Shown here: in pieces, positions 21,585 through 47,772 of the stretch | Position numbering within the stretch: the first letter of the stretch is position 1 | How the letters are laid out: each line of letters begins with the position of its first letter | Sequence record: OL539444.1 | DNA length: 49,765 bases | From: Escherichia phage_vB_EcoD_Punny | Direction: 5' to 3' (one strand) | Position numbers and translations under genes: made by a program | Notes under the pieces: generated by a model | Told to the model about the DNA's origin: nothing | Databases searched by the model: none | What the model saw: the letters and a program-made list of their open reading frames with translations, nothing else

Positions 21585-21627
21585 ATAGCACTTTTTGCTA
21601 AAACAGCCATTCGATGCGTGGTATACT
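21585..21627 (+). promoter_or_regulatory. dyad-motif promoter unit P1
   Basis: ATAGCACTTTTTGCTAAAAC, 17-nt gap, TGgTATACT in the loop of GATGCGTG/CACGCATC; upstream stop abuts the motif. Confidence 0.55.
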
Positions 21628-21658
21628 ACACGCATCAACCAACAAGAGAGGAAATAAA

Positions 21659-21950
21659 AATGGAACAGCAATTCAATGAACAAGACACTCAAGACGTGCG
21701 CGATCATGTAGGCGGATTTGTAAACGCATTAGGCATTATGCAACGCCAGTTCTTACGAGTAATTGATCCAAGCGAATCACCGGAAACTATTGAATACGTT
21801 CGCAAGGTTGCATATTCGATTGATAACGTTGTGTTAACAGTTCTTCAAATGGAGAATAACGAAGAACACCGCAAGATGATTAATCAGGCAAGTGAAATCA
21901 TGATCCAGAATTTGATTGATTATCACAACGAGAACAAAGAAAAGCATTAA
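21659..21950 (+). CDS. hypothetical protein
   Basis: 97 aa ORF with GAGAGGA RBS, 31 nt downstream of the P1 -10. Confidence 0.5.
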
Positions 21951-21996
21951 TTAACACGGCGGCGCAAGCCGCCATTATTAAACCGGAGTCAATGAA

Positions 21997-22659
21997 ATGA
22001 AATTTTCCGATCAAAACGCAAACGTAATTAAGGCATTGTTTGAGGCGCGTCAGTTATTCACAAAAGTAAAAAAGGATAAGCAAAACACGCACCTTAAAAA
22101 CAAATATGCAACTCTTGACAGCGTTCTTGATGCTATTATGCCTGGCCTTACTGATAAGGGTTTATTCCTTACTCAAGATCAGAAAGTTGGCGAAGATTTG
22201 AAATCAATGACGGTTTTAACTCGCTTCATTCACGTTGAATCAAATGAATGGGTTGAATATAGTTTCACGTTGCCAATGCAGAAATTAGATCCACAAGGCG
22301 GCGGCTCAACAAACAGCTATGCGAGACGTTATGCTCTTTGCACGGCTCTTGGCCTGGCAACGGCTGACGATGACGCAAATCTTGCCACCAAAAACGCGCA
22401 GGATTGGAAAAAAGATCTTGATGCTTGCGATAACCTTACAGACTTGCAAGAAACGTTTAAAACGGCTTACAAGCAATCTGACGCGGCTAACAGGAGAATC
22501 ATTAAAGAGCATTACGACAAGCTAAAAGCAAAAATGGAAATCGGAAAGGCTCGCGGTTTTAATCCGGCAGCGCCAGCGGCTAATGTTGCGAAGAAGGAAA
22601 ATGTTGAAAACGAGCCGCAACAGGAAGTAAAATCTCAATCTATCACAGACTTTGAATAA
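21997..22659 (+). CDS. Erf-like single-strand annealing protein
   Basis: N-terminal region (KNKYATLDSVLDAIMP...) resembles the ERF family; adjacent to SSB. Confidence 0.55.
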   Translation: MKFSDQNANVIKALFEARQLFTKVKKDKQNTHLKNKYATLDSVLDAIMPGLTDKGLFLTQDQKVGEDLKSMTVLTRFIHVESNEWVEYSFTLPMQKLDPQGGGSTNSYARRYALCTALGLATADDDANLATKNAQDWKKDLDACDNLTDLQETFKTAYKQSDAANRRIIKEHYDKLKAKMEIGKARGFNPAAPAANVAKKENVENEPQQEVKSQSITDFE

Positions 22660-22697
22660 ATTAACGTGGGGCGGTAACGCCCCAATAAGGATTAAGA

Positions 22698-23123
22698 ATG
22701 CACGTAATCACCGGAGAAATTCGCAAAGAGCCATTTGTAAAGCAAGGCGCAAACGGCACATTATACATCGTTGAGCTTTCGGAGTCATTTAAAGATCGTG
22801 AAGGTAATCGACAATACACCAATTACAAATTCTTCTTTAATGCTAAAAGCGACGGCATGAATAATTGGTATCGTGAAGCATTTCAGCAGGGTAAAGTTAT
22901 TTCTGTATCATGCGATCAGTTACGCATTGATAGCCAGGAATACAACGGGCAGATTTATAACACATTGACGGCGGCGGGCTTTCCTAATCTTTTATTCAGT
23001 CAACGCGGAGAAGGGCAGGCGCCACAACAGCAGCAACCTCGACAGCAACAACAATCGCCACGCCAGCAAGCGCCTCAAAACAACGAGCCGCCTATGGATT
23101 TTGATGATGATATCCCATTCTGA
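22698..23123 (+). CDS. ssb: single-stranded DNA-binding protein
   Basis: OB-fold-like N-terminus, Gln/Pro-rich linker and acidic C-terminal tail DFDDDIPF typical of SSB. Confidence 0.8.
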   Translation: MHVITGEIRKEPFVKQGANGTLYIVELSESFKDREGNRQYTNYKFFFNAKSDGMNNWYREAFQQGKVISVSCDQLRIDSQEYNGQIYNTLTAAGFPNLLFSQRGEGQAPQQQQPRQQQQSPRQQAPQNNEPPMDFDDDIPF

Positions 23124-23126
23124 TAA

Positions 23127-23155
23127 AATAAAACCCCGCAATGCGGGGTTTTTTA
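23127..23155. terminator. bidirectional rho-independent terminator
   Basis: CCCCGC/GCGGGG stem, 3-nt loop, flanked by an A-run and a T-run; sits between convergent SSB and tail fibre genes. Confidence 0.75.
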
Positions 23156-25438
23156 TTACTTAGTAAGCTGAACAAGCATTGCTTGCATTTCCGCAATTGC
23201 GGCTTTCATTTCTGCGATCTCGTTTTTCAACTCTTTAATTTCCTCCTGTTGAGCCTGAATAGTTTTATTCTGCTTATCTGAATCATCAATCATTTCATTG
23301 ATCGCGTTAACCAAAAGAGCAGTAATACCGCCATAGCTAACACCTAAATATTCTGAATCTGAAATCTTGTAAACCGCTTCCGGTAAAACAGTTTGCACGT
23401 CTTGAGCTATTACACCAGCCTCCTCCGAATAGAAAGAATATTCATCTTCATCAAGATTGTTGCGCTTAAAATAAGTGTAACCTTTTATTGATTTCACTTT
23501 TTCTTTAGCGCTTTCAATCTCTTTTAGGTTTGTTTTCAGGCGAATATCGGAAGTGTTAACCCATTGCACAGCAGACGCATAACCAGCATCGTTAAACCCA
23601 TAAACAGCGCCCCTTACATTAAAATGAGCCTCGCAACCTCCAGCGCCATATCTGGCAACATCTATACCAAAAGCCCAATCACCACCCCACCTTACAACCT
23701 TAACAACGTTAACGGCTACATCATCGCTTGGAAGTTCAACAAGCATACCAGCGGCGCGATCACGCCATGCAGTAAAAGCACCACCCTCAACATTTCCACC
23801 TATAAAGCAATTAGCGACACCGCGTCTAACTCCTTCAACATAAGCGAATCTAGCATCTTCTGGAGCAAGTGATTGAATAGTTCTGTATGCAATATTGCCA
23901 CTTTTTGTAAATGCAAACATCACTTGACTATCAGCAATTGCTTGAAGAATCCCATCTCCATTTTGCCTAAATCCAGTGTCTGTATCACCAATTACTAACG
24001 CATTACTTCCAAGCGCATTACCAATACCCCTACCGATAACTATTGAATTGTAATTTATCGCGTTACCGCTTTCATCAAATTGATAATAGTTTGTATCACC
24101 TCCTTCCCTAGTGACTTGTATTGTTGTTTTTGCTAATCCACCTTGAATTTCGTTGTAAATTCTTGAGTATGAAAGCTGTACATCTTCTGGACTTTTGTTT
24201 ATTAAATAAAGAATTCCAGAGTTTACAGAGTTTTTTTCTGTTAGTCTTATTCCTCTAAAAACAGGTATATCAGCCTCACCAATGCCAAAATTATTCCTTG
24301 CTTGGCTTACGTTTGCTGCACCTGTGCCGCCCTGTAGAATTCCAAGAGGAATATACTGTTGCGATGCGATATTCCAGTAACCCCAACCATCGTTACCAAC
24401 TGTAAGGTATTTGATCTTATCCGGCGACCGAATAAACGTTTCACCATCGCCCTGATCAAATCGGTCAATCTGGAAATTAATTCTTGCTTGCGTTACGTTT
24501 TCCGCACCAGTACCGCCAGCACCAACAGAAAGAGCGGATGTGCTGTTATCGCTATTTCTTGCAACTCGCCACTCGCCGTTGTTTGCGATCCGTAATTCAT
24601 AAGTCCATGCAGGGTTACGAAATGAGTTATAATCACCTGGATTTTGACCCTTAACTGAATTAACAGCCTCAACTTTCAGCGCCTCCCTTGCTAAATCTTT
24701 ATTAGCAAGATCATTAAGATTCTGATCCTTATGCAGAAGGTTTTCAGGGTTAACTTGTTGTGCCCATTGGCGAGCTTCATCACGCGCAGTTTCAGCGCCT
24801 TGTTTAGCGTTTCCGGCTGCATCGCGAGCATTAACAGCCTCGTTTTTAATTGATCCAATTTCAGCAACGGCGCTATCTTTTATTTGTTGCGTCTGCGTTT
24901 TTATTGCGTCAGTGTCTGCCTTAATCTGATTGGTTTCATTGACGGCAGCATCCTTAATCTGTTGAGTCTCAGATACAGCAGAATCCTTAATCTGTTGCGT
25001 TTCATTTTTTAGTTGCTCAGTTGCTGCTTTGTCGTTTGCTACCTGTTGAGCATCAGCATTAACCTTGTTAACTAAATCTTGCAATGTTTTCAGATCGAAG
25101 TTTTTAAAGAATTCAATTGCTTCCTCGATAACTGTTTCTTTACTTTGGTAATAACGCAGAGTTTCCGCTACATCTTGCGCCATTCCATCGACAGTTAACG
25201 AGTCATTCAACAGGATCACATAATTTCCGTTTTCTACTGGATCTCCGTCAGTCTGGATCGCTTTCATTTCCGTGTCGCTTACAATATCGCTGATAACCGC
25301 CAGCTTTAAAGGCGTGGTTAAAAAAACGATTGTTGCGCCAGTGCGAATAAGAGAAAGCGGCTCACGCCATTTTGTGCCAGTACCAGTGATAACGCCTTGC
25401 GCGTCCATCGCGGCGGTTCCAGTGCGATATAAAGCCAT
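23156..25438 (-). CDS. tail fibre with C-terminal intramolecular chaperone (S74-like) domain
   Basis: 760 aa; N-terminal 11-aa tandem repeats ([10 protein letters not shown]); C-terminal [12 protein letters not shown] region resembling self-cleaving chaperone domains. Confidence 0.7.
24872..25016 (-). repeat. 33-bp tandem coding repeats in tail fibre
   Basis: About four imperfect copies of ATCCTTAATCTGTTG..., encoding QQIKD-type repeats. Confidence 0.55.
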
Positions 25439-25474
25439 AATTTCACCTCATTGCTTGTTTAAAATAGTGTAGTG

Positions 25475-25503
25475 ATTATGCGACATTGCTATGTTACATG
25501 CAA
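25475..25503 (-). promoter_or_regulatory. sigma70-like promoter for tail fibre gene
   Basis: On the minus strand TTGCAT, 17-bp spacer, CATAAT; about 35 nt upstream of the start at 25438. Confidence 0.6.
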
Positions 25504-25528
25504 TAAAAAAACCCCGCATAGCGGGGTT
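25504..25528 (-). terminator. rho-independent terminator after primase gene
   Basis: On the minus strand AACCCCGC/GCGGGGTT then TTTTTTT. Confidence 0.65.
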
Positions 25529-25592
25529 CGTCAACGACAACGAGAAGTCAATGAAACAGATTCATCGAAAAGTGTTAGTAGCATGATGAATA

Positions 25593-26519
25593 TTATAATA
25601 AGTCACTTGCCTTGTAAAGCCTCCGCTCTATTCCATTTTTGAATTTACCGTTAATTGGTAACATTACGTCTAATTCGCGATCATCAGCAGCAATCAAAGT
25701 ATCGCGATCATTAGCATGGCACACAACGCGCATTTTGCGATCTCCTTTGTATCTGTATGCAACAATTTCAAGATTTGAAGGTGAGAAACACGCCCATACT
25801 TCTTGCCCCGTCGCCAGGTGTATATGTTGCGCATCAATCCAATCAACGCAAAGGTAAATTGTTTTGTCAGTCTTGCCAGTTACTGCAACGCTTCCGCGCG
25901 TGTAATCTTTCGCGTAAAAACTGCTTTTACCTTCCTCATTGACGAAAAGAATATTGCACATGTCATCATCCAATTCATCACTATGCACCAGGTGGCAAGG
26001 AATAGCGTGTATATGCTCGCAATATCCATTGTCATGAGTTTTTACGCCAACTTGATACGATTCGCCGTCTAATGGATAAAACGCCTCAAAAACGCTTAGA
26101 TTTGTTATTTCCATGCGTTCAGTTTTATCCATCACCTCAACACATTTTTCATGTGGTGCTTGCGATCCGAAATTGTAACCGGAGTCACGTTTTGCCGCTT
26201 TGTTAGCCTTGTTGACAACCTCAACCGGAACCAGGTTTAACCATTCGCCTAGAGTGTCGATTGCTTCACTGTAATTTTCACCACGTATTCGCATGAATAA
26301 TCCGATCCCTGAATCATTCCCGCATTGGTTGCAAATGTTGCCGCCGTCGCCTTTCTCGTTGATTTTGTCAGTCCAACGAAAGCGATCTTTACCTCCGCAA
26401 TAAGGGCAAGGTTGATGCTTTCCGTTAAAGGTTAATTGAGGAATATCGCAAAGTTTCATTAATGCCGCTTGCCACATGCCGCGCATCTTTGGGATCACTT
26501 CTTCTTTTTGATAATGCAT
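25593..26519 (-). CDS. DNA primase (zinc-ribbon + TOPRIM-like), putative
   Basis: N-terminal CPYCGG...CNQCGN zinc ribbon, acidic DxD-like segments downstream; sits in the replication block. Confidence 0.5.
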   Translation of the reverse strand: MHYQKEEVIPKMRGMWQAALMKLCDIPQLTFNGKHQPCPYCGGKDRFRWTDKINEKGDGGNICNQCGNDSGIGLFMRIRGENYSEAIDTLGEWLNLVPVEVVNKANKAAKRDSGYNFGSQAPHEKCVEVMDKTERMEITNLSVFEAFYPLDGESYQVGVKTHDNGYCEHIHAIPCHLVHSDELDDDMCNILFVNEEGKSSFYAKDYTRGSVAVTGKTDKTIYLCVDWIDAQHIHLATGQEVWACFSPSNLEIVAYRYKGDRKMRVVCHANDRDTLIAADDRELDVMLPINGKFKNGIERRLYKASDLL

Positions 26520-26577
26520 TTCTCAACCTCCAAATAAAAAACCTGGCACGATGATAAACCATGCCAGGCCGTAATTT

Positions 26578-27186
26578 TTAGCAATCAGTGCTATCGACGG
26601 AAATCACAACGCGTTTCTTCTGATTGGCTTCCTTTGCTTTGCGCCGTTCTTCTTTCGCCTTGTCGCGTTCAGCTTTGCGCCGCGCTTTCTCCTTCTCGCG
26701 TTCTTCTGGAGGCATAGACCGTAACGGATCGTAAGGCCGGACAAATCCGCGAGCCTCCGCTTCTTCTTTTGTGACAAATCGCATGAGCTTTCTGTTGCTG
26801 CAACGATTCTCTAATGGCTTGCCGTTGTTGTCAAAGCGCAAATCTGGACGGCAATATGAAGCGCGGAAACCGTTAAAACCTTTGCGGCGGTAATCCTTTT
26901 GGATCAGTTCAGCGCCTTTAGCTGAAATCATGCCGCGCTCTTTCCATCCCCACACTGTTTTAAGGTTAACGCCAATCTCACGCGCCAACGCAGCACAGCC
27001 GCCATAAGCGCTAACCACTTCATCAAGCCTAGCTTTTAATCCTGCCCTTACTTCTTCCTTTAGTACCAGATAACCGCTAACAGGTGCGCGGCGCTTCCGG
27101 TCTTTACCACGCCTTACGCCGTTGTTACCATTGATTGTGCGTTTGTCGATTTCGCCCGTTGAGGCCGCAATTTTGATTTCGCTCAT
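26578..27186 (-). CDS. HTH DNA-binding protein with basic C-terminal tail
   Basis: GGCAALAREIGVNLKTVWGWK resembles a Cro/YdaS-type helix-turn-helix; Lys/Arg/Glu-rich C-terminus. Trimmed to ATG 27186 (GGTGA RBS) because the longer ORF translates the dyad motif. Confidence 0.45.
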   Translation of the reverse strand: MSEIKIAASTGEIDKRTINGNNGVRRGKDRKRRAPVSGYLVLKEEVRAGLKARLDEVVSAYGGCAALAREIGVNLKTVWGWKERGMISAKGAELIQKDYRRKGFNGFRASYCRPDLRFDNNGKPLENRCSNRKLMRFVTKEEAEARGFVRPYDPLRSMPPEEREKEKARRKAERDKAKEERRKAKEANQKKRVVISVDSTDC

Positions 27187-27196
27187 ATTTTCACCT

Positions 27197-27239
27197 ATAG
27201 CACTTTTTGCTAAAACTATTGAGTAAGTTTGTGTATGAT
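27197..27239 (+). promoter_or_regulatory. dyad-motif promoter unit P2
   Basis: ATAGCACTTTTTGCTAAAAC, 17-nt gap, TATGAT; no clear hairpin; drives 27275. Confidence 0.45.
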
Positions 27240-27274
27240 ATGGTGCAAATGGCATTTAGTCAAAAGGATAAGTA

Positions 27275-28162
27275 ATGATTCCTAACATTGAAAAACAGAT
27301 TGAAGAACTTGGAGCGGAAAAGATAAAGGCAATACAAAAACGCTTCACAGTTGGTGAAATTGTGCCTTACGAATATCAATGCGTTGCATACGCTGAAATC
27401 GCAAAGCGCTTGAGTAAGTATGTTGATCCGTTTTTCGTAAAAGCGGCGGTATCGGCTGGTAAAACAATCATCTTTGCTATGGTTGCGGCTCAGTGCCGTA
27501 AAATGGGGTTGAAAGCGTTATTTCTGGCGCGTCAATCTGAAATTGTGGATCAGGATTCAAAAGAGATTAGCGCCTTTGGTGTTCCGAATTCCGTTTATTG
27601 CGCTGGCCTGAATACCAAAAGCGCTTATTTCCCGATTGTTGTCGGATCGGAAGGCACTGTAATTGGTGGATTGAATAAAGCGTTGGGTGATTACGTCCCA
27701 CAAGTTTTAGGTATAGACGAATGTCATCAAGTCAACTGGAATGATATTGTTGAAGCCGAGGAAAACGGCGAAAGCATAGAGCAAATGATGACACCGAAAG
27801 GTGAACCAGTTGAAGGGAATCCGTTGCTGATTGGTTCAGGCCGCGCACAATACACCATTATCATTGCAGAAATGCGCCGCCGTTGCCTTGAGACTTACGG
27901 TCATCAGTTGCGCATATTTGGAATGACAGGATCGGAATATCGCGGAATTGAGCCGATACTTGTCGAAGATAAAAGAATTCCTGGGTTTTGGCGTGAGCAG
28001 ATCACAAACATTGATACTGATTACCTGGTAAAATTTGGTTCAGTTGTTCCCACTTATTTTGGCAATGTTGGTGATTTGGGTTACGACTTATCAGAATTTA
28101 CGCCAGTGAATGAATTTGGCGTTGCTGATTATGACCAGAAGCAATATAAAGGCCATGAGTGA
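27275..28162 (+). CDS. helicase ATPase domain protein (SF2-like, Walker A and DECH)
   Basis: AAVSAGKT Walker A and GIDECHQ motif II. Confidence 0.6.
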   Translation: MIPNIEKQIEELGAEKIKAIQKRFTVGEIVPYEYQCVAYAEIAKRLSKYVDPFFVKAAVSAGKTIIFAMVAAQCRKMGLKALFLARQSEIVDQDSKEISAFGVPNSVYCAGLNTKSAYFPIVVGSEGTVIGGLNKALGDYVPQVLGIDECHQVNWNDIVEAEENGESIEQMMTPKGEPVEGNPLLIGSGRAQYTIIIAEMRRRCLETYGHQLRIFGMTGSEYRGIEPILVEDKRIPGFWREQITNIDTDYLVKFGSVVPTYFGNVGDLGYDLSEFTPVNEFGVADYDQKQYKGHE

Positions 28163-29249
28163 CAAGATTCACCAATCAGGAACCATGACGCAGAAAATAA
28201 TGCAGATGGTTCACGAGGTGATGAAAAACCGCTTGTGCGCTCTTGTTACTTGCGCTGACGAAAGGCACTGCAAAGAGGCGGCGGCGGCGCTTCCGCCTGG
28301 CACGAAATATCACATTATCACCGGAAAAACTGGAGAGAAACAGCGGCGCTTATGGCTTGAGGATGCATATGAAGGGCGCGTTAAATACATCTTCCAGGTT
28401 CAGGCGCTAACAACTGGCGTGAACGTTCCTCCGTGGGATACTTCTGTTATTTTGCGCAAGATCGGAAGCCTGACGCTATTAACTCAGCTTTTGGGGCGCG
28501 GTATGCGTCAATTAAAAACTTACCATAAAGAAGTATTGGGAATGCACAAAACAGATCATCTTGTTTTGGACTTTTCCGGCACGATGTTTGAAATGGGTAA
28601 TTTGTATTTCGATCCAATGCTTGAGCAAGCGCAATTCCAGTTGCGTAAATCGCAGGATAAAGATCCGAAATTTTGCCCGATTTGCGGCACAGAAAATTCA
28701 TTCTATGCTCGCCGTTGCATTAATGAAGATGAAAATGGAAATCGTTGTGAGCACTTTTGGACGTTTCAAACGTGTGAGGATCAGATTGATGACCACACAA
28801 AGAAAGTTATTGTAAAAGGTTGCGGCGCAAAAAATGACGTTGCAGCGCGTGTATGCCGTTGCTGTAATGTTCAGTTACGCGATCCAAATGATAATTTATC
28901 CGGCAAGATGTACCGCAAAAATGATTGGTGCGACGTGTTAGATTTTAATGTGACGCTGACAAAAAACCAGGCTGGCGTAATATTCTGCTACACGTTGCGC
29001 GATAGTGGCGGCGTAGAATTCAGGGCATACGAAAAATATTTCCCTGAATCAGAACACAAGATATGCAAAACGCTTTGGACAAAGGCTGTTAGAACACACG
29101 TTATAGATCGCCAGGCCGCAAATTATATGATCACTTGCCGCAACGCAATTAAGATCATGAGTTATGCTGGACAAATATTGCCACCAAAGCGCGTTACGCA
29201 TCGCAAGAACACAAAGAAAGAAGATTTAATAGCACAGAAGGAATTTTAA
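28155..29249 (+). CDS. helicase C-terminal domain protein with zinc ribbons
   Basis: QLLGRGMRQ motif VI-like, then CPICG...RRC and CRCCN Cys clusters. ATG overlaps upstream stop in ATGAGTGA. Confidence 0.5.
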   Translation: MSDKIHQSGTMTQKIMQMVHEVMKNRLCALVTCADERHCKEAAAALPPGTKYHIITGKTGEKQRRLWLEDAYEGRVKYIFQVQALTTGVNVPPWDTSVILRKIGSLTLLTQLLGRGMRQLKTYHKEVLGMHKTDHLVLDFSGTMFEMGNLYFDPMLEQAQFQLRKSQDKDPKFCPICGTENSFYARRCINEDENGNRCEHFWTFQTCEDQIDDHTKKVIVKGCGAKNDVAARVCRCCNVQLRDPNDNLSGKMYRKNDWCDVLDFNVTLTKNQAGVIFCYTLRDSGGVEFRAYEKYFPESEHKICKTLWTKAVRTHVIDRQAANYMITCRNAIKIMSYAGQILPPKRVTHRKNTKKEDLIAQKEF

Positions 29250-29250
29250 T

Positions 29251-29658
29251 ATGGTTACTGATAAAGGCGATTATCTGGAGTATTACGACAAGTCAGATCC
29301 AGACGATAGGAAGGAGGAAGCGCACCAGGTTGATTCTTATTCATGGTTAACATATGAGTTTCCAATGTGGCTTGTTTGGCACACTAAAAACGAAGGGAAG
29401 AAAACAATAGGCACAGCAGTAAAGGATCAGCAAGCAGGTGTAAAAAAGGGAGTAAGCGACATTCTAATCCTGACTGGTTTTATTGGCTGCAAATATGCAT
29501 TCATTGCAATTGAGCTTAAACGAGCCAACAAGAAAGGAACGAAAGTAAGCCAGGAACAAAGGGAATTCTTGCGCCGCGTTAGGGAATGCGGAGGATTTGC
29601 CGCCGTATGCTATGGAGTAGAGCAAGTAAAATTGGCTATCGCAGACGCTACAAAATAG
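29251..29658 (+). CDS. VRR-NUC domain nuclease (putative)
   Basis: DILIL...IAIELK...EQ arrangement resembles the VRR-NUC D/E-K core; stop codon is the TAG of the next dyad motif. Confidence 0.5.
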   Translation: MVTDKGDYLEYYDKSDPDDRKEEAHQVDSYSWLTYEFPMWLVWHTKNEGKKTIGTAVKDQQAGVKKGVSDILILTGFIGCKYAFIAIELKRANKKGTKVSQEQREFLRRVRECGGFAAVCYGVEQVKLAIADATK

Positions 29659-29698
29659 CACTTTTTGTTAAAACAGGCGCAACGGAATGCGCCATAAT
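29655..29698 (+). promoter_or_regulatory. dyad-motif promoter unit P3
   Basis: ATAGCACTTTTTGTTAAAAC, 18-nt gap containing GGCGCA/TGCGCC hairpin, CATAAT. Confidence 0.55.
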
Positions 29699-29729
29699 GC
29701 ACCCATCAGAACGAAACGGAGAATTAACC

Positions 29730-30008
29730 ATGAAAAAGATGTTATCAGTAGTTGCTTTATCACTTGCTCTTGTCGGTTGCATGGATAAACCCAAAACATA
29801 TATTTGCGGAAATGAAGCGTTTGAGGTTACAAGCGAATATATGAAAGTTGTGCAAGGCAAAAGCACAGGCGTTGTAATGGATAATATCAGCAAAAATCAA
29901 TATAAGTTGTTTACGCCAATTGGAACGGCTTTCTACACAGTTAATGAAAACACAATTGATATTAAAGTTGGCGTTTATCAGAACACTCTAACTTGCGAGG
30001 TAAAATAA
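29730..30008 (+). CDS. lipoprotein (possible Cor/Llp-like superinfection exclusion protein)
   Basis: Signal peptide MKKMLSVVALSLALVG-C with lipobox; about 92 aa. Track ORF from 29586 rejected because it spans the promoter unit. Confidence 0.55.
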   Translation: MKKMLSVVALSLALVGCMDKPKTYICGNEAFEVTSEYMKVVQGKSTGVVMDNISKNQYKLFTPIGTAFYTVNENTIDIKVGVYQNTLTCEVK

Positions 30009-30009
30009 A

Positions 30010-30747: not shown

Positions 30748-30749
30748 TA

Positions 30750-31007
30750 ATGGAAAATATGACAGTTTATTTAATTGAATTTGGAGAGTGGTTGCTTTAT
30801 CGCGGCCTTGTGTGTGAAATGATCACAAAAGAGGGTCATCTAGAAAAGATCGATTGTGATTTATGGGAATTTACCGAATCTCTTGATATGAGTTTTGACG
30901 AAATAAAGGAATTACCGATTGAAGAATGGCCGATTAAAGTAAAAGCTGATCTTGATGAATTCGTTAAAGACTGGGAAATGAGAAACGGAATGATGAGAGC
31001 AGAATAG
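30750..31007 (+). CDS. hypothetical protein
   Basis: 85 aa acidic ORF; stop is the TAG inside the next dyad motif. Confidence 0.45.
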   Translation: MENMTVYLIEFGEWLLYRGLVCEMITKEGHLEKIDCDLWEFTESLDMSFDEIKELPIEEWPIKVKADLDEFVKDWEMRNGMMRAE

Positions 31008-31047
31008 CACTTTTTGTTAAAAATGCCCCGCGAAAGTGGGGCATAAT
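31004..31047 (+). promoter_or_regulatory. dyad-motif promoter unit P4
   Basis: ATAGCACTTTTTGTTAAAAA, 18-nt gap with TGCCCCGC-GAAA-GTGGGGCA hairpin (GNRA loop), CATAAT, leader CAACGAAACGAAA. Confidence 0.55.
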
Positions 31048-31079
31048 CATTTCAACGAAACGAAATTAGGATTTGCAAA

Positions 31080-34150: not shown

Positions 34151-34194
34151 AATATACCCGATACAAGATCGGGTGTTTTAACAAAAAGTGCTAT
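34151..34194 (-). promoter_or_regulatory. dyad-motif promoter unit M1
   Basis: On the minus strand ATAGCACTTTTTGTTAAAAC, 18-nt gap with ACCCGAT/ATCGGGT hairpin, TATATT, leader AACGAAACG. Confidence 0.55.
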
Positions 34195-36287: not shown

Positions 36288-36314
36288 CTGAAAATCTCCT
36301 TCTTGTTGCCGCTA

Positions 36315-36358
36315 ATTATAACGGCAACATTCTACAGCCTTTTAGCAATTCGTGCTAT
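36315..36358 (-). promoter_or_regulatory. dyad-motif promoter unit M2
   Basis: On the minus strand ATAGCACGAATTGCTAAAAG, 18-nt gap, TATAAT inside GTTGCCG/CGGCAAC hairpin. Confidence 0.55.
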
Positions 36359-36994: not shown

Positions 36995-37038
36995 ATTATG
37001 CCGGATACGTGATCCGGCGTTTTAACAAAAAGTGCTAT
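36995..37038 (-). promoter_or_regulatory. dyad-motif promoter unit M3
   Basis: On the minus strand ATAGCACTTTTTGTTAAAAC, 18-nt gap with CCGGAT/ATCCGG hairpin, CATAAT, leader TTCAACGAAAAC. Confidence 0.55.
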
Positions 37039-38153: not shown

Positions 38154-38154
38154 A

Positions 38155-38407: not shown

Positions 38408-38451
38408 ATGATACCAATCAGAGCGATATCGTTTTTAGCAATTCGTGCTAT
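38408..38451 (-). promoter_or_regulatory. dyad-motif promoter unit M4
   Basis: On the minus strand ATAGCACGAATTGCTAAAAA, 18-nt gap, TGgTATCAT. Confidence 0.5.
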
Positions 38452-39144: not shown

Positions 39145-39189
39145 CATTATGCCAAAACAAACCGGATCGCTTTTAACAAAAAGTGCTAT
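39145..39189 (-). promoter_or_regulatory. dyad-motif promoter unit M5
   Basis: On the minus strand ATAGCACTTTTTGTTAAAAG, 18-nt gap, TGgCATAAT, leader CATCAAAACGAACCGGAGA. Confidence 0.55.
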
Positions 39190-39290
39190 TTAATTAAAAT
39201 ACGAATACCTTTTCGCACGCTTTCCGTCGCCTCCGTAATGGTCATTAGCAACAGCAAGAATCCAAGCGTTAGGAATAAAAAATAGCTTCA

Positions 39291-39485
39291 TCAATCACTC
39301 TCCATGACAATTACAGGCTCCAGGCGCTCAAGCACCACTTTGAAATCGGAGTAAAAAGTAGGGCGACGTTTTGTTAATTCCTCATATGTATCAGTTGCCA
39401 GGCAAGCGCGATCACCTTCATAGCACACAACTCGCTTACCATTTGCGCGACTGATTGCAACGACGCGATAAGTATTATTGATCAT
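39291..39485 (-). CDS. hypothetical protein
   Basis: 64 aa ORF coupled to its neighbours. Confidence 0.4.
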   Translation of the reverse strand: MINNTYRVVAISRANGKRVVCYEGDRACLATDTYEELTKRRPTFYSDFKVVLERLEPVIVMESD

Positions 39486-39933: not shown

Positions 39934-40007
39934 CGTTAATCTCCTGATTGGTTTCGATGGGGTAACTATATCAAGATACCCCGATCCTTTTTTAGCAATT
40001 CGTGCTA

Positions 40008-40292
40008 TTAGCCAAACGCTTTAATTTCGAAATCTTCTTCTGCCTGATTAGCAACCGCCGTGAACATTTGCTCAAGAGTTTCAAATCCGAAATGTTTAGC
40101 GATCTCATAAGCCGCTTTACCTTCCGTCTGCATGTTTAGCGCTTCGCAATAGTGCATTTCCAGATTGTTCAGGTATTTGTTGCCAGTTGGGATTGCTGCG
40201 TCGATTTTGTCCCACACGATCCAAAAGTTTGTTTTGTCAGCCGCTGCGAGTACAAAGTTTGTCTTGTCTACTGCAATCACTAAGTTTTCCAT
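40008..40292 (-). CDS. hypothetical protein
   Basis: 94 aa ORF 31 nt downstream of the M6 -10; first gene of the leftward cluster. Confidence 0.5.
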   Translation of the reverse strand: MENLVIAVDKTNFVLAAADKTNFWIVWDKIDAAIPTGNKYLNNLEMHYCEALNMQTEGKAAYEIAKHFGFETLEQMFTAVANQAEEDFEIKAFG

Positions 40293-40323: not shown

Positions 40324-40368
40324 ATTATAGCAATTCGCGTCTGATTGGTTTTAACAAAAAGTGCTATT
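40324..40368 (-). promoter_or_regulatory. dyad-motif promoter unit M6
   Basis: On the minus strand ATAGCACTTTTTGTTAAAAC, 19-nt gap, TGcTATAAT, leader CATCAACGAAACGAA. Confidence 0.55.
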
Positions 40369-40376
40369 CATGCGAT

Positions 40377-40404
40377 AGACCGATTGGTCTAGACCGTTTG
40401 GTCT
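40377..40404. promoter_or_regulatory. tandem palindromes AGACCGNTTGGTCT x2 (operator-like)
   Basis: Two adjacent 14-bp imperfect palindromes immediately upstream of unit M6. Confidence 0.45.
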
Positions 40405-40407
40405 AAT

Positions 40408-40530
40408 GAACGCATCGTTTTGTGTATCGAACGCATTCACGATCACGTTATACGATCACAATATGATCATGTTGATGATTGATGTGTGAGTTGATGTGAT
40501 TTGATTTGATTAGATTTGATTATATTTGAG
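40408..40530. repeat. GATC cluster and GATTT/TGATG iteron-like tract (possible origin or regulatory region)
   Basis: Repeated GAACGCAT, three closely spaced GATC sites, then TGATGATTGATGTG and five GATT(T/A) pentamers; no ORF. Confidence 0.4.
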
Positions 40531-40667
40531 TAGTGAGAGAGCAGAAATAATCACACCTTGCCGATCAGAGAAAACTTTTCCCGCAAAAAATCACTCCAGG
40601 CTCAGCTCGTTTCGTTTTGTTCCTCGCCGTTCCCATCCCGACCTTCCGCAGTTTAGCGCAACGTTAC

Positions 40668-40740
40668 ACAACACGTATAACAACAAAATATCTATATAAT
40701 ACATTGAAAAGTAAGATAATTATTATTATATATCTATATT
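40668..40740. repeat. conserved AT-rich intergenic element, copy B
   Basis: Matches 20171-20245 (two identical blocks of 20 and 25 nt). Confidence 0.7.
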
Positions 40741-40956
40741 GTTATATAACTTGTTTTGCTTGTTTCTCATGATATTGATACCCCTTCACGGATTTATAGA
40801 GTATAAAATTATAAGATAGGTGCTCTTATTTATTATAGGTGGCGGTGATTTTTAGCGAAATGGTGTAACGATTTAGAACATCGTTGATTTGAAAGGATAA
40901 ATTTTCAATTACTGTTACATTGCGTGATGTTTTTGTTGCCTAATCAAAAATAACAC

Positions 40957-40984
40957 TTGACGCATAAGCCAGGTTTGCTAAGAT
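40957..40984 (+). promoter_or_regulatory. sigma70-like early promoter
   Basis: TTGACG, 16-bp spacer, TAAGAT; about 34 nt upstream of ATG 41019. Confidence 0.5.
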
Positions 40985-41018
40985 TTCTGCATCGAGCAAC
41001 AACGGAGGATAACCAATC

Positions 41019-41971: not shown

Positions 41972-41993
41972 CGGATTACATCCTGATTGGCAA

Positions 41994-42037
41994 ATAGCAC
42001 TTTTTGTTAAAACTCGATTGGGGTAGTTTGGCATAAT
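41994..42037 (+). promoter_or_regulatory. dyad-motif promoter unit P5
   Basis: ATAGCACTTTTTGTTAAAAC, 18-nt gap, TGgCATAAT between GGGGTA and TACCCC, leader CATCGAAACGAAACGAGG. Confidence 0.55.
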
Positions 42038-42068
42038 TACCCCATCGAAACGAAACGAGGAAAACACA

Positions 42069-42227
42069 ATGACTACCTTAATCACCTGGGAACACGAAAC
42101 AAGCCAGCCAGTAACCCGCGAGTTTGAAACTCTTAGCCAGGCTTATCTGCTGGCTGCTAACGGTGGTTATTACAAGGCTCAAGTTATTGATGAAATGGGA
42201 GTGATCGTTTATGAATTCCATGCATAA
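42069..42227 (+). CDS. hypothetical small protein (52 aa)
   Basis: ATG 31 nt after the P5 -10; below the track cut-off. Confidence 0.4.
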   Translation: MTTLITWEHETSQPVTREFETLSQAYLLAANGGYYKAQVIDEMGVIVYEFHA

Positions 42228-42828: not shown

Positions 42829-42872
42829 ATAGCACGAATTGCTAAAACTAAATCAGGGGAATTTGTTATAGT
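42829..42872 (+). promoter_or_regulatory. dyad-motif promoter unit P6
   Basis: ATAGCACGAATTGCTAAAAC, 18-nt gap, TGtTATAGT flanked by AGGG/CCCT. Confidence 0.5.
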
Positions 42873-42905: not shown

Positions 42906-43460
42906 ATGTTAAGCATCGAAAAAATCAACTTCCCGATCACATTTAAAAATTGCGCTGACGGTAGAAATATTACATATCACAGTGAATACAGCAACGGCGT
43001 TTGGAGTAGCGGCGAGAAAAGCAGTCTTTCATTGCAATATTTCATTAAGCTGCATAATGAGCATAACCAAAGCAATAGTAATGTGTTGAGGTACTATTAC
43101 GAAATGGCAGAAAAACGCGAGGATAACGATCTGTTAGATGCGATGAAATATTTAAATATCAAGCCTGGCCAGGTTAATTTAAACGGTGCTGTGTTTACTG
43201 CGTCAGTAGGTGCTAAAGATTACGATTACATTTGCAAGGTTGAAAATATGCCAGTTGGCGCAACTCTGTTAGGTGTTCAGCGTGAAAATGGCGAATGGGA
43301 CGAGTTGAAATTTAAACCGCGCCGCATTGAAGTACACGACGATGTTATTTGCTTGCTTTCCGGTTATTCTGGAGGTTACAAGAGCGGCAATAATTACGGA
43401 GCTGAAATCAACATTAAGATCGGTACTAACGTAAAAATCAAAAACAGCACGAATTGCTAA
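42906..43460 (+). CDS. hypothetical protein
   Basis: 184 aa ORF with AAGGAGAA RBS; the C-terminal NSTNC and stop are encoded by the next dyad motif. Confidence 0.5.
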   Translation: MLSIEKINFPITFKNCADGRNITYHSEYSNGVWSSGEKSSLSLQYFIKLHNEHNQSNSNVLRYYYEMAEKREDNDLLDAMKYLNIKPGQVNLNGAVFTASVGAKDYDYICKVENMPVGATLLGVQRENGEWDELKFKPRRIEVHDDVICLLSGYSGGYKSGNNYGAEINIKIGTNVKIKNSTNC

Positions 43461-43486
43461 AACAAATTAACGGCCTTGCGATATAG
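43443..43486 (+). promoter_or_regulatory. dyad-motif promoter unit P7
   Basis: ACAGCACGAATTGCTAAAAC, 18-nt gap, TATAGT in the loop of GGCCTT/AAGGCC. Confidence 0.55.
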
Positions 43487-43519
43487 TAAGGCCATACCAA
43501 ACAAACCGGAGAAGTTAAC

Positions 43520-43696
43520 ATGAAATTATATGGTGTCGCTGGAATCGCTTTCTTTTCTTTGTGGATTGCTGCAATCGCTGGCTGGATCATGAATATCGTT
43601 GAAATGTTTGGCGATATCACAACCAACGAATTAATCATTCGCGCAATCGGGATATTCGTTGCACCTGCTGGCGCATTAATGGGCTGGTTCATGTAA
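43520..43696 (+). CDS. small membrane protein (58 aa)
   Basis: Two hydrophobic segments; CCGGAGAA RBS. Confidence 0.4.
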   Translation: MKLYGVAGIAFFSLWIAAIAGWIMNIVEMFGDITTNELIIRAIGIFVAPAGALMGWFM

Positions 43697-43739
43697 TAGC
43701 ACTTTTTGCTAAAACAAAATTTCGGGGTTGCGGTATAGT
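43696..43739 (+). promoter_or_regulatory. dyad-motif promoter unit P8
   Basis: ATAGCACTTTTTGCTAAAAC, 18-nt gap, TATAGT in the loop of GGGGT/ACCCC. Confidence 0.55.
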
Positions 43740-43769
43740 GACCCCACACAAAACAAAGAGGATCAGATA

Positions 43770-44096
43770 ATGGAATTAGCACGTAACGCAATTTATGGTT
43801 TGCACCTCAAAGGCGGAAAAGGTTTTACTTGTGCCCACCTTTTTCATGTGAATGAGCGTGGTCAGATGGATATCGCAATGTTTGTTGACCAAAGGGTTAA
43901 GAAAGGCGGTGAGGGTGATTGTGATACATTCCGACCGGATTTAGTTGAATACGATCACACATACAGTCATGATCACTGGATTGGTCACGGTCGCAAGTTT
44001 GTAATGGTTAATAGCCACGTTACCGACACAAGCAAAATCACTGCATCGCAGTATAAGCGCATGGCTCGCAAGGTTATGAAGTTAGAAGCGCAATAG
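43770..44096 (+). CDS. hypothetical protein
   Basis: 108 aa ORF with AAGAGGA RBS; stop is the TAG in the next motif. Confidence 0.5.
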   Translation: MELARNAIYGLHLKGGKGFTCAHLFHVNERGQMDIAMFVDQRVKKGGEGDCDTFRPDLVEYDHTYSHDHWIGHGRKFVMVNSHVTDTSKITASQYKRMARKVMKLEAQ

Positions 44097-44136
44097 CACG
44101 AAATGTTAAGCGGTCATGTGTGCTGATTGGTACAAT
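44093..44136 (+). promoter_or_regulatory. dyad-motif promoter unit P9 (degenerate motif)
   Basis: ATAGCACGAAATGTTAAGCG, 18-nt gap, TGgTACAAT within GGTCAT/ATGACC hairpin. Confidence 0.45.
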
Positions 44137-44168
44137 GACCTCATCAAACAACAAGAGAGGATAGAAAA

Positions 44169-45208: not shown

Positions 45209-45252
45209 ATAGCACTTTTTGCTAAAACTTGCTAAGGCACATTTGATAAAGT
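45209..45252 (+). promoter_or_regulatory. dyad-motif promoter unit P10
   Basis: ATAGCACTTTTTGCTAAAAC, 18-nt gap, TGaTAAAGT in the loop of AAGGCACA/TGTGCCTT. Confidence 0.55.
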
Positions 45253-45285
45253 GTGCCTTGTCGAGACAAGCAAGGAGAATGACAC

Positions 45286-45764: not shown

Positions 45765-46332
45765 AATTATCATCCTTAACGCGCCTCCAGGTGCTGGTAA
45801 AGACACAATCGGCAAGATGATTTCTTTCTATTCGCCTGGTGAGCAATGCCGCATCATTAGCTTTAAAGAGCCAATGTTTGACATTGCATTAGCTATCCTG
45901 GGCAAAGAGAACTATCAGCGTTTCATGCTGGCTTACGATGACAGAGAGCAGAAAGAAAGGCCACAAACGTTCCTGATGGGTATGTCGCCTCGAGAGTTCA
46001 TGATCTGGATTAGCGAGGATGTGATCAAGCCTAAATTCGGCAAGGATTATTTCGGCGTAAGGTTTAACCAGAAAGTAAAAGAGTGTGATGCTCCTGTTGT
46101 TTGCACTGATGGTGGTTTTCCAGATGAAATTATCGCTCTAATCAATGCTGGTAATGAGGTGAAGTTATGCCGATTGCATCGCGACGGGTTCACGTTTGCA
46201 GGTGATAGCCGCAACTACATTCGAATCAATCCCTATTACCAGAAAAACGGATATAGCGAGCACGATTACTTATTAACCAATGAAAAGCCGATGATTACAG
46301 TTAGCGAAATCATTCGCGATCACCTTAAATAG
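45757..46332 (+). CDS. P-loop kinase (nucleotide/polynucleotide kinase-like)
   Basis: N-terminal Walker A NAPPGAGKDT; 191 aa; near the HAD phosphatase. Confidence 0.5.
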   Translation: MAKIIILNAPPGAGKDTIGKMISFYSPGEQCRIISFKEPMFDIALAILGKENYQRFMLAYDDREQKERPQTFLMGMSPREFMIWISEDVIKPKFGKDYFGVRFNQKVKECDAPVVCTDGGFPDEIIALINAGNEVKLCRLHRDGFTFAGDSRNYIRINPYYQKNGYSEHDYLLTNEKPMITVSEIIRDHLK

Positions 46333-46372
46333 CACGAATTGCTAAAACTTGCGCAAGGCCATTTGTTATAGT
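46329..46372 (+). promoter_or_regulatory. dyad-motif promoter unit P11
   Basis: ATAGCACGAATTGCTAAAAC, 18-nt gap, TGtTATAGT in the loop of AAGGCCA/TGGCCTT. Confidence 0.55.
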
Positions 46373-46407
46373 GGCCTTATTCAAGAGAAGCAACCGAGGA
46401 ATAATCG

Positions 46408-46605
46408 ATGAAAATCAAATGCACCAAATCAAACACCATGAATCTGACAGTTGGCGCAATTTACCACATGGAAGATGGTGTAAACGGATTTAGCCCGACT
46501 GTTACGCATGAATACGGCGGTCACTTCTTCTTAAACGGTAAAGACGGATTATCTGTAAATGTTGGCTCTTTCGTTCTGGCAGAATTTGAGATCGTGGAGG
46601 AATAA
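46408..46605 (+). CDS. hypothetical protein
   Basis: 65 aa ORF. Confidence 0.45.
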   Translation: MKIKCTKSNTMNLTVGAIYHMEDGVNGFSPTVTHEYGGHFFLNGKDGLSVNVGSFVLAEFEIVEE

Positions 46606-46606
46606 A

Positions 46607-46771
46607 ATGTTCTGGATTCATTCGCCGCAAGGATTGCTTTATGTGCCTGGCGTTGAATTGGAAGAACGACGCGACGGCGACACGGTAAACATCATAACGA
46701 AGGATTCAAAAGGCCATACACTAAAAACGTATGTTTTTAACACTCCGGTTAAGGTTGAAAAAGATGATTAG
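46607..46771 (+). CDS. hypothetical protein (54 aa)
   Basis: GGAGG RBS. Confidence 0.35.
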   Translation: MFWIHSPQGLLYVPGVELEERRDGDTVNIITKDSKGHTLKTYVFNTPVKVEKDD

Positions 46772-46946
46772 ATTTATTGGTTTTGTGGCATTGCTTTTGT
46801 GCGGCATATTGCTTACTGACAATGACACTTGGCAAAGTGCTGTTGGCGGCTTACTTATTTTTCTTGCTGGTGGCATGGTTGGCAGTGATGACGCAGCAAA
46901 CAAGAATAAACTTTCAGATCATTTACGCAGAGAGACAAAACGATGA
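46764..46946 (+). CDS. small membrane protein (60 aa)
   Basis: Two hydrophobic segments. Confidence 0.35.
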   Translation: MIRFIGFVALLLCGILLTDNDTWQSAVGGLLIFLAGGMVGSDDAANKNKLSDHLRRETKR

Positions 46947-47188
46947 ATAGAAAAATGCTGGTACGAGCATTCGCAAAGATTGCTAAAAGATGGGGTGATT
47001 CAGCTAAAACGCCTTACACGTTTAGCCGATACGGTTATAAAAATGCTCGCGCCTGGGGTCGCTGCATTGCTGATAACTACAACTCCGAAATGATGGAAGA
47101 TTTTGCAAAGTGGATTGATACGCCTTTGAAGGATTGGTGTCAATTTGACTATGACTATTTCGCAGAAGAAGAAATTTCTTGTTGGTAA
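46943..47188 (+). CDS. hypothetical protein
   Basis: 81 aa ORF. Confidence 0.4.
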   Translation: MNRKMLVRAFAKIAKRWGDSAKTPYTFSRYGYKNARAWGRCIADNYNSEMMEDFAKWIDTPLKDWCQFDYDYFAEEEISCW

Positions 47189-47200
47189 GGAGAATAAAAT

Positions 47201-47698
47201 ATGAAAGCTAAAAATGATTTTTATAACTACCTGACAAAAGGCCGTGACTATACCGTTTTGAATAGCATAGATACTCTTTACCTGGTTGTTGCTGATAATG
47301 GCGTTAGAGTTTGGCTTGATAAAACTCTTTTCGAAAGCGAGCACCTAAGCAACGCAAAGCGGATCGCAGATGAAGCAAGCGCATTAGCAGAGCGTGAACG
47401 AATTCGCGATATAGTAGCGGAGCAGGTTAGAAATTCATGTTCGCCTGGTGGCGATATCTTCAAATCAATGCGCGGTGAAATGACGGTTGGAATTCAAGAT
47501 CGCGTAATTTCAAAGTCAGTTGATTCTGTAATTGAGAATGCGCGATTCAATGCGTTGATTAACTCAGAGCATAACGAATACGTCAAAGCATTAGAGCAAC
47601 TGCGTGAAGTGCTGCGAGTGCCGGAAGGTGAAAATATTGTGACTCATGCAAAGGTTGTAAGAGCGTTGGCTGATGCGCTGATTGGTCTGCAAAAATAG
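47201..47698 (+). CDS. hypothetical protein
   Basis: 165 aa ORF with AAGGAGAA RBS; stop is the TAG in the next motif. Confidence 0.5.
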   Translation: MKAKNDFYNYLTKGRDYTVLNSIDTLYLVVADNGVRVWLDKTLFESEHLSNAKRIADEASALAERERIRDIVAEQVRNSCSPGGDIFKSMRGEMTVGIQDRVISKSVDSVIENARFNALINSEHNEYVKALEQLREVLRVPEGENIVTHAKVVRALADALIGLQK

Positions 47699-47738
47699 CA
47701 CTTTTTGTTAAAACTTCCGCGAGGGCATTTGTTAAAGT
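47695..47738 (+). promoter_or_regulatory. dyad-motif promoter unit P12
   Basis: ATAGCACTTTTTGTTAAAAC, 18-nt gap, TGtTAAAGT in the loop of GAGGGCA/TGTCCTC. Confidence 0.55.
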
Positions 47739-47772
47739 GTCCTCATTGAAGCGAAACACGGAGATTTAGGAA

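Follow-up and report, generated by a model that had tools for sequence, protein, structure and literature searches.

Putative cistron-boundary RNA hairpins overprinted on the predicted direct-repeat promoters of a T1-like phage

Introduction

Why should a phage place an inverted repeat around the -10 hexamer of one putative promoter after another, and is the structure used as DNA or as RNA? The question is raised by the genome of Escherichia phage vB_EcoD_Punny (OL539444.1; the whole stretch of 49,765 nucleotides that was analysed is called the window below), in which copies of a short direct repeat (DR) are each followed at a near-fixed distance by a -10-like hexamer and, in most cases, by an inverted repeat in the same interval. 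Our reading, to which we give a probability of about 0.6, is that the inverted repeat serves as an RNA hairpin at cistron boundaries and is overprinted on a promoter of the activator type, one with no -35 element.

The direct repeat itself is not new. The motif ATAGCACTTTTTGYTAAAAC is the published 21-nt direct repeat of phage TLS, and the TLS consensus aaATAGCACnnnTTGnTAAAA was found in the window. The TLS copies have the same orientation as the genes and lie about 76 nt 5′ of start codons, and the repeat is also reported in T1, Rtp and Rogue1; its function was left open, with a stoperator, an enhancer site or an UP element suggested (PMC11447400). The fixed-distance -10 hexamer and the inverted repeats described here are unreported in that paper, whose table gives terminators T57 and T62 beside DR10 and DR12 with no connection drawn to the repeats (PMC11447400).

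Results and Discussion

Cassettes and their hairpins

By sequence identity the window is that of a T1-like phage, since its positions 20000-32000 (12 kb) share 99.9% identity with Citrobacter phage vB_CfrD_ZerotoHero and 96% with phage Sazh, two members of the genus Tlsvirus of the Drexlerviridae. Its genes form five blocks of alternating direction. A search of the window with ATAGCACTTTTTGYTAAAAC gave 16 matches at up to 3 mismatches against 0.04 expected, and a relaxed pattern gave 20 cassettes and one degenerate copy at 6389-6405. By a cassette we mean the 21-nt direct repeat, a gap of 20-21 nt, the -10-like hexamer, an A at +1 and an A/C-rich conserved leader.

A strong hairpin was found in 15 of the 20 cassettes, with a minimum free energy (MFE) of -9.3 to -17.6 kcal/mol and z ≤ -2.4 against dinucleotide shuffles; over all 20 cassettes the mean z is -2.7. 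As RNA these 15 are stable and G+C-rich, and every one of them persists in the fold of a read-through RNA of about 185 nt with a mean pair probability of at least 0.90, whereas folding with DNA parameters gives a mean of only -5.3 kcal/mol. When the 3′ flanks were swapped between cassettes, the mean MFE went from -11.0 to -6.4 kcal/mol, and the native mean was reached in 0 of 400 permutations. The same holds among relatives, where 247 distinct cassettes gave -9.74 for native against -6.86 ± 0.09 for swapped arms, and 160 of 235 distinct cassettes have an MFE of -8 or below. Rfam 15 gave no family at gathering score in the window, and none of its five sub-threshold matches overlaps a cassette.

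All 13 inverted repeats listed in an initial annotation of this DNA are present at the positions it gave, and to these we add two on the minus strand (39956-39986 and 26542-26568). That annotation also placed the hexamer of most units inside the loop of the repeat, which is so in 11 of the 20 cassettes (class A) and not in the other 9, where the hairpin is either of a different build (class B, 4 cassettes) or missing (27197, 38451(-), 39189(-), 40367(-) and 42829). Class A accounts for 99 of the 235 cassettes in relatives; its arms lie at about -24 to -16 and about -9 to -1, and the extended -10 and the hexamer occupy the loop or the inner stem. Its strict Watson-Crick arms are 4-8 bp (mostly 6-8), the loops are 8-13 nt, and the arms end at -1 in about half of the cases. 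Class B (29676-29693, 31023-31044, 34156-34174 and 37000-37018 in the window; 61 of 235 in relatives) has a stem of 6-9 bp and a loop of 4-6 nt, fills -31 to -12, and touches only the first base of the hexamer.

The two classes can be understood as two ways of packing a pair of overlapping signals, a DNA-level promoter and an RNA-level hairpin, which would share about 55 bp in each cassette. Only about 34 nt would be free between repeat and leader, and the A/T-rich -10 would be unable to join a G+C-rich stem, hence the two modes. In class A the arms would use the unconstrained spacer (-24 to -16) and the discriminator (-9 to -1) and leave the hexamer in the loop, and in class B the whole hairpin would be fitted in the 21-nt gap. 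On this logic, which rests on per-position pairing profiles of both classes, the place of the hexamer in the loop is better explained as a by-product of packing than as functional display.

The sense strand is selected

To separate RNA from DNA, the mismatches inside the stems are informative. When stems were selected by a strand-symmetric Watson-Crick score, the internal mismatches were of G·T type in 53 cases and of A·C type in only 2, against a composition null of 1.26:1 (p about 1e-11); counted once per sequence cluster the numbers are 13 and 1. Selection by sense-RNA energy, which is strand-biased, gave the same result. In class B taken by itself, where the promoter consensus contributes nothing to the stems, the count is 21 G·T and 0 A·C. 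The sense RNA is also stabler than the antisense RNA in 134 cassettes and less stable in 30, and UUCG/UNCG as well as GAAA/GNRA tetraloops are present in class B. A cruciform or a palindrome bound by protein would treat both kinds of mismatch alike, and therefore the sense single strand is what is selected. Most simply this would be RNA, and we consider selection at the RNA level very probable.

The initial annotation had offered a DNA cruciform or single-strand structure aiding promoter melting as one of two possibilities, and this is the one that fares badly. In such a device, supercoil-driven extrusion of a cruciform or hairpin would present or hide the -10 and so tune melting; the early promoters of N4 are comparable, and Horwitz and Loeb reportedly engineered a cruciform-regulated promoter of this kind. 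The exact flanking of the -10 and extended -10 by class A arms, often ending at -1, would suit it, as would stems that are G+C-rich and specific to each cassette. Yet each G·T on one strand of a cruciform is an A·C on the other, so that the excess reported above is contrary to it, and the equal pairing on both strands with a short loop that marks a DNA palindrome was not found in the cassettes. Antisense folding is weaker, the Watson-Crick arms of 4-8 bp with class A loops of 8-13 nt and the low mean DNA stability given above are unfavourable, and the hairpins of class B are placed upstream of the segment that melts. An upstream open reading frame (ORF) should be irrelevant to a melting device, which leaves the dependence on one, described below, unexplained; moreover promoters at the head of gene blocks have no hairpin. 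We regard a DNA-level device as improbable.

A hairpin of single-stranded DNA on the sense (non-template) strand only, formed on the lagging-strand template, in recombination intermediates or behind a read-through polymerase, would serve as a priming signal or show the -10 to sigma-70. The strand asymmetry fits this as well, and it is the non-template strand of the -10 that sigma-70 reads. The phage has genes for a primase, an Erf-like annealing protein and an exonuclease (from the Sazh gene list), and a transcription-coupled version could account for the dependence on an upstream ORF. Against this, the asymmetry follows gene direction across the five alternating blocks and therefore cannot track one direction of replication, UNCG tetraloops are stability motifs of RNA, G·T pairs destabilise DNA hairpins, and in class B the -10 is not displayed. 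This alternative thus appears even less probable than the cruciform.

Compensatory changes in orthologues

The claim that stems differ while pairing is kept, and the proposed comparison with related phages, came out in favour of selection on structure, with 7 of 7 pairs changing on both sides in orthologues of the cassette upstream of the T1p09-like helicase gene. Its stems vary as TTGCCG/CGGCAA, GGGCCGT/ACGGCCC, GTGCGG/CCGCAT, GTTGCCCT/AGGGCAAC, GTTGGCC/GGCCAAC and GTTGACCT/AGGTCAAC, and some intermediate stems have G·U pairs. The covariance-model alignment (41 matches, 23 distinct rows) has 93.7% of its cells paired against 64.7% in shuffles (0 of 500 reach the native value) and 16-50% with slid partners; such an alignment leans towards structure, and it is the slid controls that argue for a real signal. 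A plain MAFFT alignment was discarded in its favour because subfamilies fell in different stem registers. Orthologue sets were taken from protein-anchored scans, as the motif scan of IMG/VR gave too few sequences per cassette. In orthologues of the primase cassette the hairpin and its U-run are retained with unrelated stems, the stems of the T1p07 cassette (class B, 37000-37018) vary likewise, and the same architecture is found in phage T1 itself.

These results bear on whether the repeats need any explanation by selection on structure, since they could be due to chance, be a non-adaptive by-product of quasi-palindrome correction, or be palindromic operators for a dimeric repressor. The inner stem of class A does come partly from the promoter consensus, as the T-rich segment before the TG pairs with the A-rich end of the hexamer. 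Nevertheless the native stability was never matched by the arm-swap permutations, the covariation is contrary to chance or a by-product, and the stems differ between cassettes, so there is no common operator. Strand asymmetry and the association with an upstream ORF argue for selection too, and we hold these explanations to be scarcely credible.

Hairpins accompany an upstream co-directional gene

If the structure is RNA, the transcript on which it forms has to come from upstream. Since its 3′ arm stops at about -1, the hairpin would not be part of the transcript that the cassette itself would start and could form only in RNA reading through from the gene before; the stop codon of that gene lies at the repeat, which places the hairpin in its 3′ untranslated region. 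We scored hairpins by the presence of a co-directional ORF of at least 50 aa ending at the repeat. A hairpin was found in 163 of 210 cassettes with such an ORF and in 26 of 65 otherwise (Fisher p = 3.6e-8), and in 36 of 65 against 5 of 29 at cluster level (p = 6.5e-4), the latter figures being the safer ones as the sequences are related and pooled p-values are optimistic. In the window the division is complete among the 18 of 20 cassettes that were scored (13 of 13 with an upstream ORF, 0 of 5 without), and the other two both have hairpins. The hairpin is absent from both cassettes that head divergent blocks (27197 and 40367). Conversely, in some relatives the repeat and the hexamer are missing upstream of the helicase gene and the hairpin GCCCCttcgGGGGC is still there.

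Role of the hairpin

We propose that, in RNA continuing from the gene before, the inverted repeat would fold as a hairpin and form a cistron-boundary structure. Such a structure would shield the upstream message from 3′-to-5′ exonucleases and keep the decay and folding of one cistron from affecting its neighbour; where the tail is U-rich, as it is in a minority, partial termination of read-through may be added. The specific boundary function, as exonuclease barrier or insulator, we put forward tentatively, at even odds or somewhat less. An RNA hairpin on read-through transcripts was the second possibility of the initial annotation, and of this the data support the sense-RNA level and leave the specific processing and termination roles as suggestions.

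Termination is the role that such hairpins would most readily suggest, with each hairpin halting the upstream polymerase and every gene being its own transcription unit. The primase cassette has a hairpin and a U6 run kept across divergent orthologues; the Sazh annotation calls it a terminator, and in TLS it is listed as T57. Another terminator of TLS, T62, comes immediately after DR12. Hairpins come after stop codons with a spacing that clears the ribosome footprint, and the dependence on an upstream ORF also fits a terminator. However, at least 5 U in the 8-nt tail were found in only 19 of 160 hairpins (about 12%), namely 4 of 99 in class A, all of them the primase cassette, and 15 of 61 in class B. 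In the window a U-tract follows only 26542-26568 and, marginally, 34156-34174. The remaining 95 class A and 46 class B hairpins are without one, the tails of class A are A/C-rich with a mean of 1.2 U in 8 nt, and at the presumed point of release class A would have a G+C-rich hybrid. U-less hairpins terminate E. coli RNA polymerase poorly or not at all. As a general account, canonical intrinsic termination is therefore unlikely, being true for a subset. RNase III sites were rejected, the stems of 5-12 bp being too short. A separate, perfect 8-bp hairpin, AAGGCGGC/GCCGCCTT at 33868-33887, lies where two gene blocks converge and has U-rich tails on both strands; it resembles a terminator that works in both directions and corresponds to T69/T70 of TLS.

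There may also be a functional coupling of hairpin and promoter, a "stop-and-restart" relay in which the -10 works twice, serving in addition as a sigma-70-dependent pause site on read-through complexes or as an A/U-rich endonuclease target on the transcripts. As the hairpin reaches exactly to -1 in about half of class A, the upstream RNA would be ended or cut by it at the start nucleotide of the next transcript. If true, this would mean U-tract-independent 3′-end formation and identical leaders on processed and primary mRNAs, at about 20 cassettes per genome across the Drexlerviridae. We think it doubtful, slightly more so than general termination. A literature search for promoter-embedded terminators found nothing specific.

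Returning to the boundary hairpin overprinted on a promoter, several points besides the relatedness of the sequences weigh against it. The role of exonuclease barrier or insulator was chosen largely by elimination. A literature search found no transcript 5′ or 3′ end data (transcriptome, start-site or Term-seq) for any T1-like phage, and so both the promoter and the RNA function are what we infer. The U-poor tails of class A mean that termination, which forms part of the proposal, is not a general role. Also 22% of the cassettes with an upstream ORF have no hairpin and 40% of those without an ORF have one. A possible unannotated 34-codon ORF MKLFFIPNAWILAVANDHYGGDGKRAKRYSYFN (39190-39294, minus strand) ends at the repeat of the hairpin-less cassette 39189, and if real it would be an exception to the rule. 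The frequent end of the class A arms at -1 could hint at start-site coupling, which the proposal does not require, and G+C-rich discriminators probably alter promoter kinetics too, so that a DNA-level side effect is possible.

The putative promoter part of the cassette

Measured from ...TTGYTAA, the hexamer of the 20 window cassettes lies 21 nt downstream in 18 cases and 20 nt downstream in 2; among IMG/VR relatives the offset is 21 nt in 219 of 303 distinct cassettes. A position profile of 197 cassettes gave T-12 78%, A-11 99%, T-7 98%, G-14 88% and A+1 87%, so the A-11, the T-7 and a purine start about 7 nt downstream that are expected of a -10 are all there, and the start of the leader, ATCGAAAC..., is conserved in the same profile. 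The full TG at -15/-14 is present in 55% of class A cassettes, in 11% of those of class B and in 47% of those that have no hairpin. A canonical -35 hexamer 16-18 bp upstream of the -10 was not found in the cassettes, and a sigma-70 consensus scan of the window misses them. The TTGYTA within the repeat was ruled out as a -35 element, as it lies 21-22 bp from the hexamer and is therefore too distant.

The repeat is a palindrome, TAGCA-N5-TGYTA, spanning -50 to -34 with its centre at -42 (e.g. 21585-21601), and -42 is the position used by class II activators. It may be noted that, were the repeat RNA, its sole variable stem position (Y) would stay paired, as G-C or as G·U. The sequence would be consistent with a promoter of the host RNA polymerase that has no -35 and relies on a factor bound at about -42. 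A likeness to sigma-54 promoters (AGCACG-N2-TTGC against GGCACG-N4-TTGC) was rejected on spacing. The consensus of host Lrp, yAGhAwATTwTdCTr, was confirmed in PMC5554404, and the T-type repeat TAGCACTTTTTGCTA agrees with it at 13 of 15 positions. Still, matches to the Lrp consensus at up to 2 mismatches are no more frequent in the window than expected (15 found against 15.9), and the GAA and TGTTA variants are missed; Lrp was thus dropped as the reader of the repeat and kept as a weak lead only.

A candidate for the repeat-binding factor is the 225-aa helix-turn-helix (HTH) protein encoded at 26578-27255 on the minus strand, a homologue of T1p23 that the Sazh annotation calls a transcriptional regulator. 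One cassette overlaps each end of its gene (26578-26594 and 27197-27213). Pfam gave only a sub-threshold YdaS/Cro-like match for it, by which the repeat-binding factor is not identified. In the TLS re-annotation no gene for an RNA polymerase or a sigma factor is reported, and three sigma-70-like promoters were all that could be recognised (PMC11447400). In the window, no right-facing cassette is present in the divergent intergenic region 40368-41018, where the minus block gives way to the last plus block; canonical sigma-70-like matches, possibly early promoters, lie there at 40775-40802 and, with a TG, at 40957-40984. Downstream of the hexamer the transcribed leader begins with CATCGAAACGAAAC (e.g. 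42044-42068), A/C-rich, U-poor and conserved among cassettes. It is common to other "middle promoters" of phage KP27 that do not have the repeat (L001 41-60 and 926-945) and could act as a translational enhancer or give nuclease resistance.

Comparison with known systems

Intrinsic terminators, including those between T1-like late genes, share with the cassettes a G+C-rich hairpin of the sense RNA just after a stop, often with a UNCG or GNRA loop. They differ in the U-rich tail, which here is found only in the primase cassette and about a quarter of class B, in standing free of a promoter, and in loop size (8-13 nt between Watson-Crick arms in class A). With some 88% having no U-tract, the cassette hairpin is not of the intrinsic-terminator class; it would work more like an intercistronic stabiliser hairpin or a leaky terminator. 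Stabiliser hairpins are known from REP elements and as the 3′ hairpins left on T7 early mRNAs. Shared with these are the place at a cistron boundary, variable sequence with pairing kept, and no need of a U-tract; unlike them, the cassette hairpins are not a REP-like repeated sequence, are too short for RNase III, and overlap a putative promoter.

DNA hairpin promoters also pair a promoter element with an inverted repeat. The early promoters of the N4 virion RNA polymerase and the Frpo/ssi sites of conjugative plasmids depend on a polymerase of their own or on a stage as single-stranded DNA, and their stems or loops are defined. Here there is no phage RNA polymerase (per the TLS re-annotation), the loops are long and the strands asymmetric, and since strand symmetry is absent the cassette hairpin is not of this class. 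With class II activator-dependent and extended -10 promoters the cassettes share a palindromic site near -42 in place of the -35; G-14 or TG and a good -10 are present as well. The MotA box of T4 differs in that the cassette motif lies 8-12 bp further upstream.

The cassette is not confined to T1-like phages. The copy at 41993-42063 is 83-85% identical to a site in T4-like Slopekvirus (KP27 NC_020080 9119-9188, L001 601-670; KP15-like phages), the match covering the repeat, the hairpin with TATAGT in its loop, and the leader. In KP27 this site is annotated "putative middle promoter (MEME)", an annotation that is itself only a MEME prediction. IMG/VR contigs of Slopekvirus size have a single cassette copy each. 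This resemblance suggests that gene and cassette were transferred horizontally between phage families, and it raises the question whether a host factor reads the repeat. The small gene downstream of cassette 41994 (42069-42200) has about 71% DNA identity in Cronobacter phage CR8, a myovirus of the Vequintavirinae (L002 597-747), a further sign of gene exchange among unrelated enterobacterial phages.

The cassettes of the window

Eleven cassettes are of class A. On the plus strand, 21585..21636 (DR 21585-21601) has the hairpin GATGCGTG/CACGCATC at 21613-21636 (MFE -13.0, z -4.2) with TATACT 21622-21627 in the loop. In 41994..42044 (DR 41994-42010) the hairpin TGGGGTA/TACCCCA spans 42019-42044 with CATAAT at 42032-42037. 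The next two are 43444..43493 (DR 43444-43460; GGCCTT/AAGGCC at 43472-43493; TATAGT 43482-43487) and 43696..43745 (DR 43696-43712; GGGGT/ACCCC at 43724-43745, G·U-extended in RNA; TATAGT 43734-43739). They are followed by 44093..44142 (DR 44093-44109; hairpin 44110-44142; TACAAT 44131-44136) and by 45209..45260 (DR 45209-45225), whose hairpin AAGGCACA/TGTGCCTT at 45233-45260 has 12 bp as RNA (MFE -16.2, z -4.9) around TAAAGT 45247-45252. At 46329..46378 (DR 46329-46345) AAGGCCA/TGGCCTT spans 46355-46378 with TATAGT 46367-46372. The last, 47695..47744 (DR 47695-47711), pairs GAGGGC with GTCCTC at 47721-47744 with one G·U and has TAAAGT at 47733-47738; here the sense RNA gives -14.2 and the antisense -4.5 kcal/mol.

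Three class A cassettes are on the minus strand. The one upstream of the primase gene, 26542..26594 (DR 26578-26594), has CCTGGCA/TGCCAGG at 26542-26568 followed by TTTTTT, with TATCAT 26551-26556 in the loop. The one upstream of the T1p09-like helicase gene, 36306..36358 (DR 36342-36358), has TTGCCG/CGGCAA at 36306-36327 with TATAAT 36315-36320 in the loop, and 39956..40008 (DR 39992-40008) has a hairpin at 39956-39986 with the core GGGGTA/TACCCC and TATAGT at 39965-39970.

Class B comprises two cassettes on either strand. On the plus strand these are 29655..29698 (DR 29655-29671; GGCGCA/TGCGCC at 29676-29693), in which CATAAT 29693-29698 abuts the 3′ arm, and 31004..31047 (DR 31004-31020; CATAAT 31042-31047), whose hairpin at 31023-31044 has a GAAA tetraloop and one G·U (MFE -17.6, z -5.2). 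On the minus strand, 34151..34194 (DR 34178-34194; TATATT 34151-34156) has ACCCGAT/ATCGGGT at 34156-34174 with a U-rich tail and was flagged as terminator-like in a signal scan, and 36995..37038 (DR 37022-37038; CATAAT 36995-37000) has GCCGGAT/ATCCGGC at 37000-37018.

Among the five without a strong hairpin, 27197..27239 (plus; DR 27197-27213; TATGAT 27234-27239; MFE -3.0) heads the divergent plus block and has no upstream co-directional gene, and 40324..40367 (minus; DR 40351-40367; TATAAT 40324-40329; MFE -0.6) heads the divergent minus block. The other three are 38408..38451 (minus; DR 38435-38451; TATCAT 38408-38413), 39146..39189 (minus; DR 39173-39189; CATAAT 39146-39151) and 42829..42872 (plus; DR 42829-42845; TATAGT 42867-42872), the last with a weak 4-bp repeat only (MFE -5.2, z -0.2). 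The degenerate copy at 6389-6405, ATAGCATTTTTTGTTAAAC on the minus strand, is antisense in the late structural region, has no convincing -10 and corresponds to DR7 of TLS. In phage T1 (L218 8322-8395) the repeat copy ATAGCACTAAATGTTAA comes after a canonical terminator in front of the small terminase gene and leads directly into a ribosome-binding site with no -10 hexamer; therefore the repeat can exist without the promoter part.

Significance

The repeat, the two TLS terminators and the one in Sazh were already known, and what is new here is that repeat, hexamers and hairpins are connected. No new mechanism is revealed. T1-like phages (Drexlerviridae) are common laboratory contaminants, and one early-region segment of the window matches 940 phage-collection records. 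For these genomes the cassettes provide a testable promoter model (repeat at -42, G-14, -10 hexamer, A+1), and the same 55 bp or so would hold a second signal, under selection at the RNA level. They would thereby illustrate cleanly how DNA and RNA codes overlap in nature, with the packing solved in two alternative ways. In practice this offers an annotation rule for promoters and gene-boundary hairpins in T1-like phages, together with a warning that annotated terminator hairpins may lie inside promoters, and the cassettes may possibly yield compact promoter-plus-insulator parts for synthetic biology.

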